Below are positions 3,001 through 6,000 of a DNA stretch of 52,839 bases, piece after piece (position 1 is the first letter of the stretch; each line of letters starts with the position of its first letter). The position numbers were made by a program. The DNA lies in the IMG/VR virus record IMGVR_UViG_2880372215_000003; one strand, written 5' to 3'. The DNA is from a virus (Duplodnaviria; Heunggongvirae; Uroviricota; Caudoviricetes).

Positions 3001-6000
3001 GCGCATCTCTGCCTGAATTTCGGGCCATTTGGCACCAGGCTTACATTTATGCTTAACCCACCCGATGGCATGCAGCTTAAGCTCCGGATACATAGCGTTA
3101 ACTTCTGGCATTTTCATCAACGCTTCAACGATATGGCCGTCGAATGTTGCCATGTCTTCCTGCAACAATTCCTGTGCGCTAATCACCATATCAACAGTGA
3201 TGTTTTCACATGTGTCGAACTTAACCATGACAGCGTTCTGTACTTCAGGGGCCAGGTTGTCAAAAGTGACGTTCATCGGATCGGATTCAGTCTCGACCGG
3301 GACAAAGGAAGCAGACGCCTCATCCCAGCGGTTTTCCTGCATATATTCAGCATCCCAGGAATCGAGGGCAGGGCGGGGTATACCGGGTTTATCCTCGCAA
3401 ACAAGAAATTTATAAGCGCAGTCCTGAGCAGCCGGATAATGTTCCAGGAATTGCCAGTGAAATTTTGCGCGGGCGCGACGTTCATCACCGGCTTCAATGG
3501 CAGTGGCTACAGCGACGGCACCTTCTTCCTTTATTGCCTGTTCGTCCGGAATGGCGGCGCAAATAAAGACTTTACTCATTTTGTTTTACCTCATTACAGA
3601 TTTAAGGGTGAACAAATCCCTGCCATTGCTGGCATATAAGAATGAAATCGGATGTTTATTACGGAACTGTTTTAAAGACCTGCCGGGATTTCGTTATTAT
3701 CCTGGTGAATAACTTTATCGACCGGGTAACAGTTACCGGGAATTTTCTGTTCGGTTGCTGCAGTCACACACTCCTGCATTGTCCTGTGAACACTGACTGC
3801 AATATCAACTGGCTCTCCGGAAACAAGAAAAACTGTCAGAACAAGTGCAAATGCTGTATTCATTGCCAGCATCCTTTTTGTATCGGACGTAAACGGGCCA
3901 GCATTGAAAGAATGCATATTTTATTTAATAGCTCCCGTTCGTGTTTTCTCTTGTTAATGGCATCTTCAGTAAATACAGGGTTACTGATAGTGACACCAAT
4001 TTCAAAACAACCTTCAGACGTATTAACGTTTGGTAATAACGTTTCCATTATCGCGTCCTCAACAATGAATTTTGTGATGCGGTGCCTGGTGCCTCCAGGT
4101 GACGTTAACCAGTTAACAATTAACGCCGGATACAGAGAATCCCCCCATAACACTGTTTTTGGTTTTAACTGTTCCGCGTGCGCTCAGCCGCATTCACCGC
4201 ATCACAAAATTCACTTTAAAAAGGGCGGCAGAGCAGTCACGGAGTAAAACTGATACCGCCAAACGTCACCAGAAAATTGATAACAGAGGGCGTTGCAGCG
4301 GGGTTGTCACTTAAGCGTATGGTCAACCTGACAACCCGGTGTCCTCAACGGGGGAAGGAATAACCCCTCCATACTTACCGCCGCGCCATTTCGCGGATTG
4401 CCACAACCGGAAGCGCACGGTCGACGAAAATTTAACGACAGGCTATCTATGAACCAGCTACCTCGCCGTGCGCTTTCGCGTTATGGTCTGACTTTTCAGG
4501 GAAATATCCTTTCAGTAAACTGTCAGTGCCGTATGCTCACCCGTGTCCGGCGCACGCACTCCACCTCACCCGTGGAGAACTCCTTAATTACCAACCTTAG
4601 CTTCGTTGGTTAGCTATTAACGCGGGTATGTAATCATTCTGGCAATGCTTAATGCCGCTGCTTTTTCCAGATTGGTGATATCCTGCTCCAGAGCGGACAG
4701 ATTTTCAGCCTGCTTAGCCCTGGCTTCATTGGCCCATTTCAGATCCTGCGCTGCATTAATTTTCTGGTGCATCCACTCATAAAGTTCATCATCGGTATAG
4801 TCTGGCGCGATGATGACGGGTTCTCGTTTCTGCATGTCGGCTCCTTGTGGTTAGCGTTGCCTGCTTTTAACCACGTCAGGCGAGGTGGTATCCTCTGAGG
4901 GGTCTGTTACTCGAGAGGAAATTGGTTATGAATACAATCAAGTTTTCTTGCCCAGAATGTGGTGGCGAAGTCTTTGACACATCCTTTAAGCCGCAGGGCT
5001 CTGACAGTTTCGCGGGAGCCATCTGCAAAAATTGTGGTCACCTTGTAACTGAAGATGAGTCCTCGCAGTTCGATGACGAAATCGTTGACAATATCTTCGG
5101 TGCACTCACCAGAGACTTTCTGAAGTAAAGGCGCATACCGCTTAGTTACCGCTCTGATAACTCTTACCTGTCCTGCAATGGCGCTGATGTCAATATAAAG
5201 CGCCATTGCTGCTTCTTTGCCGATCCCGGGATGCCTTCCATTCTGATGTTTGACTTCGCCCACTGAGAAACCCTCTGTTTCCCCTTAACGCCGGGGTAGC
5301 GGAACAAAAAACTGCTGCATAGTTATTAAAGTTGAACCCTGCCGTCATGTTCATACGCCTCGGGCTGGCTACTTAACCCCTGACCACTGCCGGGTAACTC
5401 GAAGTATTTCCCTGCGTTCTGTGGGGCGGGGTGGGTTGGTATTTTTAGTTTAATAAACATTAAACTTAAGTCAAGTAAAAACTAAACCGCGGGACATAAC
5501 AAACACAACGCTTTTGATAAAGTCGTTGCGGTTGTTATGTTTCTATTGGTAGTGAAAGTTAGGGAAACTGGCGTCTTGCGTGGATCACGTTTACTACTTC
5601 AACGCTTGATGTTGTTACGCGGTATAGAATTATATAGTTAGGGTGGGCTACAATCTCACGCAAGCCAGGTACTCTGTCGCTTGGTGGGTATAAATACGGA
5701 TGTTCGGATAACGGCAGCACACAACCCCTTAATCGCTGCCATAAGCGTTCAGCCGCATCTATGTCGAAACGAGCAATATAACTAGTTATATCATCTAGGT
5801 CGGTATCTGCGCTTTCAAGCCATAACACGGGTAACATTTTACTGCTTGCTCCGTTCCTTGCGCATCTTAGCAAAGCGTTCTGCCATTCTGCGCTCAACTT
5901 CGTCATGGGGAATTGCTGGGCGCGGATCTGCAAGGCTCGTTGCTACTTTCGCACGCAGCCATTCGTTGTAACTGTTTTCTTGTTCAATGGTTTCAAATTC

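Follow-up and report, generated by a model that had tools for sequence, protein, structure and literature searches.

Can a single short stretch of phage DNA carry conserved protein-coding genes on both of its strands? Long antisense overlaps of this kind are seldom met with in bacteria and phages and are disputed, and by rule annotation pipelines keep one antisense partner and drop the other. The question is raised by a locus in the early-left region of a lambdoid prophage contained in the 52,839-nucleotide virus record IMGVR_UViG_2880372215_000003 (the whole stretch analysed here, referred to as the window), which is 100% identical to genomes of Escherichia coli O157:H7 and corresponds to prophage Sp12 of strain Sakai, the equivalent of CP-933P in strain EDL933. 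The initial annotation had described two overlapping open reading frames (ORFs) on opposite strands at positions 4907-5263, and both were found as described. ORF Z on the plus strand (4928-5128) starts with ATG and encodes 66 amino acids (MNTIKFSCPECGGEVFDTSFKPQGSDSFAGAICKNCGHLVTEDESSQFDDEIVDNIFGALTRDFLK); in RefSeq it is ECs_2282, an "ECs_2282 family putative zinc-binding protein". ORF L on the minus strand (4907..5206, stop codon at 4907-4909) encodes 99 amino acids from the ATG at 5206, or 118 if a possible GTG start 19 codons further upstream is used (extension 5207..5263), and it is absent from the RefSeq annotation. The zinc ribbon, the ribosome-binding site and the nested antisense position that had been assigned to the plus-strand ORF all stood up to analysis; the conclusion that only one of the two ORFs is likely to be real did not, as both frames are conserved, open and equipped with start signals in every lineage examined, and L, the partner dropped from the annotation, has a coding signature outside the overlap as well. 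Both ORFs bear the marks of natural selection across related phages, and the pair is probably one of the rare cases in which both strands truly code. We are thus inclined, with moderate confidence, to regard Z and L as a conserved, in-register, opposite-strand gene pair of the early-left region of Sp12/CP-933P.

Z lies entirely within L, and the codons of the two frames are in register (the difference between 4928 and 4910 is divisible by 3), so that wherever one frame has a stop codon, the other reads TTA, CTA or TCA. Taken from one genome only, the overlap is no more than expected by chance, the antisense frame being open with P ~0.18 given the Z protein and the local codon usage, and its significance therefore comes from comparative data alone. 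A scan of genome contigs with Z patterns gave just two spurious matches in metagenome-assembled genomes, and a scan of viral contigs was dominated by near-identical E. coli copies; divergent loci were gathered protein by protein. With Z as the query, relatives that are 59-70% identical were retrieved from Citrobacter, Klebsiella and Enterobacter, and an in-register opposite-strand ORF of 93-174 amino acids is open at every one of these loci. Conversely, the search with L reached relatives of 37% identity, and every locus fetched had an unbroken Z frame that includes all four cysteines. A second subfamily of Z (76 amino acids, CPDCGS...CADCGRE...KGTGWKFK; 26-30% identical to Z of the window, which belongs to subfamily 1) occurs in Klebsiella, Citrobacter, Hafnia, Cronobacter, Enterobacter and E. 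coli, and a third type is found in Klebsiella phage KP12; at the loci of these two kinds that were examined (L218, L219, L220/221, L222 and L226), an in-register antisense ORF of 95-115 amino acids is open in five of five. Seven genera retain the pair: Escherichia, Citrobacter, Klebsiella, Enterobacter, Serratia, Hafnia and Cronobacter. Conservation of the minus frame alone in homologous prophages, which the initial annotation had named as the finding that would speak against Z, was not what was observed, and neither was the mirror image, conservation of the plus frame alone. In diverged relatives, both frames remain open and are subject to purifying selection, the pattern expected of a functional antisense pair.

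The module has been found in three settings: directly after the early leftward promoter PL, directly after cro in a rightward operon (loci L085 and L086), and in a Rha/KilA operon (phage KP12). In all three, L is co-directional with the operon and Z is opposed to it. In the window, a consensus scan placed the promoter PL933P (TTGACT-16-TAAACT) at 5474..5447 on the minus strand, flanked by GTTTAGT-type operators and with hexamers that are the same as those of PR (6462-6491). Among the conserved ORFs of the PL operon, L is thus the first; it is followed on the same strand by ydfC, DicF, dicB, ydfD and a recE-like exonuclease gene. Z faces against the PL operon and is antisense to early-left transcription, in agreement with the initial annotation.

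Does L encode a protein? About 22-26 of its N-terminal codons lie outside Z, so that ordinary selection tests are valid there; in the window this part comprises 26 codons (5129..5206, minus strand, M-ALYIDISAIAGQVRVIRAVTKRYAP). In subfamily 1, divergence in this stretch is 0.32, 0.29 and 0.54 at the first, second and third codon positions (p1, p2 and p3), the ratio of nonsynonymous to synonymous substitution rates (dN/dS) is 0.22, and the ratio of nonsynonymous to synonymous differences (pN/pS) is 0.44 (confidence interval, CI, 0.30-0.60), which is lower than in any of the other five frames. Subfamily 2, which serves as an independent replicate, gave a pN/pS of 0.58 (CI 0.41-0.82). In all 10 lineages of subfamily 1, L is the sole stop-free frame of the non-overlapping stretch. 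A motif at the N-terminus of L, L-x-V-D-A-S, is common to both subfamilies, and in every lineage the start codon lies within 0-3 codons of the motif T-L-x-V-D, mostly with a purine-rich Shine-Dalgarno (SD) motif ahead of it.

The GTG extension is confined to the E. coli clade, where it is open in relatives (P0030, P0033 and P0039) and less conserved than the core of L; it is absent in other lineages, the ORFs of which begin at the position of ATG 5206. A CCCC-N8-GGGG hairpin (5275-5300, minus strand) lies just upstream of GTG 5263. Elsewhere, L is extended at its N-terminus, to 174 amino acids with about 80 extra residues in a Citrobacter lineage (L087/L088:4995-5519, minus strand) and to 126 amino acids in Enterobacter (L091), and these extended ORFs retain the conserved internal methionine together with its SD motif. 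RNA structure was rejected as the cause of the conservation of the L N-terminus, since the repeat GGCGCT...AGCGCC (~5181-5205) spans just about 12 of 72 nucleotides. The same repeat was also rejected as an intrinsic terminator of Z, its loop being 13 nucleotides long and the T-run 7 nucleotides off, with a negative result of the terminator scan.

Within the overlap, the codons of Z carry the imprint of the opposite frame. Not one of the 101 leucine and serine codons at codons 3-66 of Z in the ten lineages is TTA, CTA or TCA, compared with about 17.5 expected from local usage. At least 13 independent third-position changes have taken place at TCN and CTN codons of Z, none of them to A, and the forbidden codons occur in Z solely at codon 2, where they form the stop codon of L itself. 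The synonymous sites of Z are slower (pS 0.51) than the adjacent synonymous sites that belong to L only (0.67; bootstrap P 0.019), and the synonymous divergence of Z is 0.44 as opposed to 0.62-0.75 for neighbouring genes in the same phage pair. The codon for Pro9 of Z, which faces a tryptophan of L, is CCA in 43 of 44 sequences. Furthermore, the observed Z-synonymous changes lead to conservative replacements in L (P 0.0024 for the ten lineages and 0.026 for the 44 sequences), when they are compared with the possible changes at the same columns and of the same transition/transversion class, stop-creating changes being excluded; applied to four control gene pairs with a fictitious antisense frame, the same test gave P values of 0.55-0.76. 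L matches the family phrog_21318 over its full length (223.6 bits, E value 3.9e-67, profile 1-99 of 99); this is its sole family match and consists of near-identical E. coli phage ORFs to which no function is assigned. The AlphaFold2 model of L, built from 19 sequences, is compact and of alpha/beta type (predicted local distance difference test score, pLDDT, 78; predicted template modelling score, pTM, 0.62). L is thus most probably translated, giving a small alpha/beta protein.

It should be noted that several observations weigh against a two-strand coding unit. In the overlap, the rate at sites that are nonsynonymous in both frames relative to that at sites that are nonsynonymous in Z and synonymous in L (dNN/dNS) is 0.49, which is modest in comparison with about 0.75 for the fictitious antisense frames of control genes; the latter value arises because the NN sites are mostly second positions, and an OLGenie-type ratio below 1 was therefore dropped as a proof of L. 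A comparison confined to the E. coli clade puts this ratio at about 1, and the part of L that overlaps Z in subfamily 2, with a pN/pS of 1.06, shows no constraint in its own right. L belongs to a very small family, of which 1.84 billion representatives contain 7 clusters at 50% identity, and among the structural neighbours of the L model none was informative, so that the fold is unmatched. The AlphaFold2 model of Z is poor (pLDDT 55; short strands at residues 3-5 and 15-17, helix at 50-64), and the folding energies of the leader ahead of Z are ordinary (z -0.1 to -1.9). No published transcript, ribosome-profiling or proteomic evidence was found for Z or L, and neither of them is among the entries of the Sakai ribosome-profiling (RIBOseq) tables, which follow an older annotation (PMC5597208). 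Lastly, the lineages share ancestry and are not phylogenetically independent, and the probabilities given above are therefore approximate.

The name of the locus is a source of confusion in this respect. The entry "ECs2282" in the RIBOseq supplement (PMC5597208) is another ORF, of 54 amino acids, which is located in the PL leader (5190-5354, minus strand) and has low read counts. RefSeq later transferred the tag ECs_2282 from this original minus-strand ORF to the plus-strand zinc-ribbon ORF, so that older expression tables that name ECs2282 describe different DNA. A literature search yielded nothing on ECs2282 as a plus-strand zinc-ribbon gene.

The alternative that survives best is that L is not a translated gene at all. 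It can draw on the weak constraint in the overlap described above, but we consider it unlikely, because it leaves unexplained the coding periodicity and the low pN/pS outside Z (0.44 and 0.58), which are seen in two subfamilies and in a stretch in which L is the sole open frame, as well as the conserved start codon and SD motif of L. Also without explanation would be the fact that third-position changes, of which at least 13 were independent, never produced a forbidden codon, the slowed synonymous sites of Z together with the conservative bias of the replacements in L, and the co-orientation of L with early operons in unrelated contexts.

A second alternative is that selection acts on the act of translating L and not on its protein. 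Ribosomes covering L, antisense to Z, would keep Rho-dependent polarity from acting on the PL transcript and thus allow the expression of ydfC, dicF and dicB. The start signals and the openness of L are conserved while there is little or no constraint on its amino acids in the overlap, which would fit such a role, as would the lack of an N gene between PL and L within the window. In lambda, RNA polymerase that has passed PL is N-modified (N antitermination). The lambda stretch antisense to sieB is non-coding, yet the polymerase there is N-modified, again in line with this possibility. The PL leader ahead of L is 234 nucleotides long and contains a C-rich, G-poor stretch that resembles a Rho-utilisation (rut) site (ACCAACCCACCCCGCCCCACAGAAC, ~5405-5440, minus strand), which is a further point in favour. 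Nevertheless, we give this explanation little credence: the N-terminal motif of L is kept at the amino acid level in both subfamilies, the replacements in L that result from Z-synonymous changes lean towards conservative ones, AlphaFold2 predicts a compact fold, and a prophage of Hafnia paralvei (L221) keeps an L-like ORF despite the presence of a lambda N-like gene (Pfam N36/N_peptide, 4353-4622, minus strand) directly upstream of its L-like/Z-like module (4001-4231). The module thus coexists with N and is no substitute for it. L itself was rejected as an analogue of lambda N, as it is without an arginine-rich motif and matches neither Pfam N36 nor N_peptide.

Of the two ORFs, Z is on comparative grounds the more strongly constrained, and it is also the one chosen by RefSeq. 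In the overlap, the Z frame of the ten lineages has a p1 of 0.29, a p2 of 0.15 and a p3 of 0.41, with a dN/dS of 0.30. An OLGenie-style partition, in which sites nonsynonymous in both frames are related to sites synonymous in Z and nonsynonymous in L (dNN/dSN), gave 0.26 (CI 0.17-0.37), and 0.22 within the E. coli clade; in subfamily 2, pN/pS of Z is 0.20 and p3 is much larger than p1 and p2. The two CxxC pairs that the initial annotation had noticed (CPEC and CKNC) are present, about 20 residues apart and conserved in relatives as in Cys4 ribbons, and Z passes the cut-off of the NCBIfam family NF047912 (ECs_2282_CxxC) with 57.3 bits against a required 37 (E value 1e-15, profile 1-56 of 60). 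The four cysteines (C8, C11, C33 and C36) do not vary among 13 diverged sequences, the most distant of which is 27% identical, and together with G37 they are invariant in homologues that reach 27-30% identity. The cysteine codons alternate between TGC and TGT, with the facing residues of L switching between alanine and threonine, and at all four sites the facing codon of L is RCA in 44 of 44 sequences, which is inexplicable under selection on L alone. The SD motif of Z in the window is GAGAGGA (4913-4919), 8 nucleotides before the ATG and as good as had been claimed; an AGGA or GGAG motif lies 6-9 nucleotides 5' of the Z ATG in all lineages, and in most of them both this motif and the conserved ATG are located beyond the end of L. 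An alternative in-frame TTG at 4922 would add two residues to Z (4922..5128, 68 amino acids). With 47 family members found in Enterobacterales, Z is, by these signatures, a genuine protein-coding gene for a small protein of the Cys4 zinc-ribbon type with a predicted acidic C-terminal helix.

Nonsense alleles of Z are present in 40 of 181 copies from the E. coli clade (e.g. at loci L131, L081 and L178). They are of two types: GAA to TAA at 4967 (E14*), which changes a phenylalanine of L to leucine, and GAG to TAG at 5057 (E44*), which is silent in L. An interruption of L only was seen in none of the 181 copies. The pair is a clean and testable candidate, for which a natural allele with Z lost and L intact exists and Z-synonymous mutations that abolish L are easily designed. 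That only L is a gene, and the zinc-ribbon look of Z a by-product of the L sequence, can be argued from the greater length of L, the frame chosen by gene callers in most unannotated contigs, and from the commonness of these nonsense alleles with L intact, but this is scarcely credible, as all four cysteine codons are kept in every lineage in spite of the freedom of the facing Ala/Thr codons at the third base, variation peaks at the third positions of Z and not at those of L, the start codon and SD motif of Z are conserved past the end of L, and the leader ahead of Z is of the sieB type and oriented for Z.

This leader connects the locus to a known circuit. A conserved block of 31 nucleotides (4859..4889, recorded without regard to strand) is located upstream of Z; it occurs once in the window, compared with 0.01 copies expected by chance, and even lineages that have diverged strongly retain it 5' of Z. 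Its identity to a sequence 54 nucleotides before lambda sieB (NC_001416, 34396-34428) and to P22 is 93.9-97%, and the block aligns to the sequence of the P22 sas RNA (taken from Table 2 of PMC13397905), the complement of the block being the 3' part of sas. In P22, sas is a PL-strand RNA that controls the translation of sieB (Ranade and Poteete 1993, as cited in PMC13397905). An inverted repeat (CCTCTGAG...CTCGAGAGG, 4892..4918) stands between this block and the Z start codon; it overlaps both the SD motif of Z and the stop codon of L, and the minimum-free-energy fold pairs the SD motif. At other loci a hairpin is held at this position with differing sequences (TCTTGG/CCAAGA, TGCTGG/CCAGCA and CTTTCC/GGAAAG). 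Two further interpretations of the block were rejected. An extended -10 promoter (TGGTATCCT) was dismissed because the copies at sieB and in Hafnia no longer have its TAT, and also because the block must be inside the mRNA if sas pairs with it; a LexA box was dismissed because the sequence, CTGT-N8-CACA, is no match.

The same arrangement of block, variable hairpin, SD motif and ATG heads unrelated PL-facing genes, namely sieB, a 66-amino-acid ORF, SfII_36 and an unannotated ORF of about 95 amino acids, and at locus L090 sieB and Z stand in tandem, both preceded by a separate copy of the block. Copies of this header were located at L090:4219-4330, L087:3991-4065, L225:901-975 (phage SfII), L224:901-975 (phage phiES15) and lambda NC_001416 34396-34428, and headers with the 31-nucleotide type of block are present in 138 phage records, including many lambdoid phages. 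By this distribution, the sas-type leader is a portable header placed before several unrelated PL-facing prophage genes. On this basis, a whole class of "morons" is predicted to be under antisense control of the sas type.

How far does the likeness to sieB and sas of P22, or to sieB of lambda, extend? Z is located opposite the PL strand in the early-left region and has the same leader block ahead, but its product is a 66-amino-acid protein of the zinc-ribbon type that does not match PF14163 (SieB), and it is without an internal in-frame methionine for a second product like Esc. As far as these comparisons go, what is shared is the expression signals only and not the protein. Moreover, the strand opposite lambda sieB is non-coding, whereas the strand opposite Z holds a conserved ORF, and the likeness of the Z locus to P22, for which a discrete PL-strand antisense RNA is known, concerns the leader sequence.

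A mechanism can be proposed that joins these elements. Z is a "moron" opposed to the direction of PL, with the same 5' leader as sieB, an exclusion gene that is expressed from the prophages of lambda and P22, and L is the first ORF after PL933P, which is controlled by PaaR2 and YdaS. Activity of PL933P and its approximately 100-fold repression by PaaR2 and YdaS have been shown (PMC8630535), and PaaR2, YdaS and YdaT are the analogues of CI, Cro and CII in this prophage (Jurenas et al., PMC8630535). Tentatively, the pair might thus form a two-strand coding switch, in which Z is the protein of the lysogenic state, made from the sieB-type leader, and L that of the lytic state, made from PL, each mRNA silencing the other so that the two proteins never coexist. 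Such a switch would be an ancient, protein-coding elaboration of the sieB/sas circuit that has been kept across Enterobacterales; we offer this as a speculation that is more doubtful than the existence of the gene pair itself. Z and L might even act against each other, one being, for instance, an early effector directed at the host and the other its antidote or an exclusion factor of the prophage state. As the locus is situated between the bistable PaaR2/YdaS switch and the cell-division inhibitors DicF and DicB, the products may bear on prophage maintenance or superinfection exclusion.

Family searches with Z gave several weak profile matches below the respective cut-offs: HVO_2753 (E value 0.0023), PDB entry 8q5b (E value 0.01) and the TFIIB and TFIIE ribbons, the Lar restriction-alleviation family TIGR03655 (15.7 bits, E value 0.014, with a cut-off of 39.6), and the PADLOC defence candidate PDC-M14A (E value 0.0019, and 8.8e-6 for subfamily 2). 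Like Z, Lar, HVO_2753, the TFIIB and TFIIE ribbons and PDC-M14A are shorter than 80 amino acids and possess two CxxC knuckles with a spacing of about 20 residues, and a sequence search of the PDB returned only generic zinc ribbons and chance matches to T4 lysozyme. At the level of these profiles, the matches of Z below cut-off represent a generic zinc-ribbon resemblance only. The family name NF047912 carries no function, and its annotation is silent on both the opposite-strand ORF and the sieB-type leader. Z has already been named, though it is uncharacterised, while L and the link to the sieB/sas leader go beyond the annotation.

Opposite-strand coding candidates of which annotation keeps one have been described in the same organism, E. 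coli O157:H7, e.g. ano/ECs2385, laoB, asa and three more in EDL933 (PMC5960689, PMC5810103, PMC6294744 and PMC9927249). Those genes are backed by RNA sequencing, RIBOseq and phenotypes, whereas Z and L are known here from sequence comparison. They are said to be mostly young, taxonomically restricted ORFs inside an older gene. In contrast, both Z and L are conserved across genera, and the unannotated partner, L, is the longer of the two.

The next gene of the PL operon after L is ydfC (4617..4835, minus strand), which is recognised by RefSeq and by phrog_1744. Upstream of PL, the three-component toxin-antitoxin/repressor locus paaR2-paaA2-parE2 (5559-6485, minus strand) and the ydaS/ydaT pair (from 6520 onward, plus strand) are intact. 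For the antitoxin and toxin genes, gene callers give overlapping alternative starts (5839..6084 and 5559..5933) in comparison with shorter RefSeq models. A permissive Rfam scan of positions 3500-7500 found no match at the Z/L locus, and the only matches nearby were DicF (4223-4274, 76.7 bits) and a sub-threshold match to STnc100 (4016-4225, minus strand; 39.7 bits against a gathering score of 47), which lies directly downstream of DicF and overlaps the start of dicB. Between DicF and ydfC, a second small ORF is antisense to the PL operon, the hypothetical ECs_5735 (4449-4613, plus strand, 54 amino acids), which is without a sas-type block upstream and has a terminator-like site nearby (4640-4657, plus strand).

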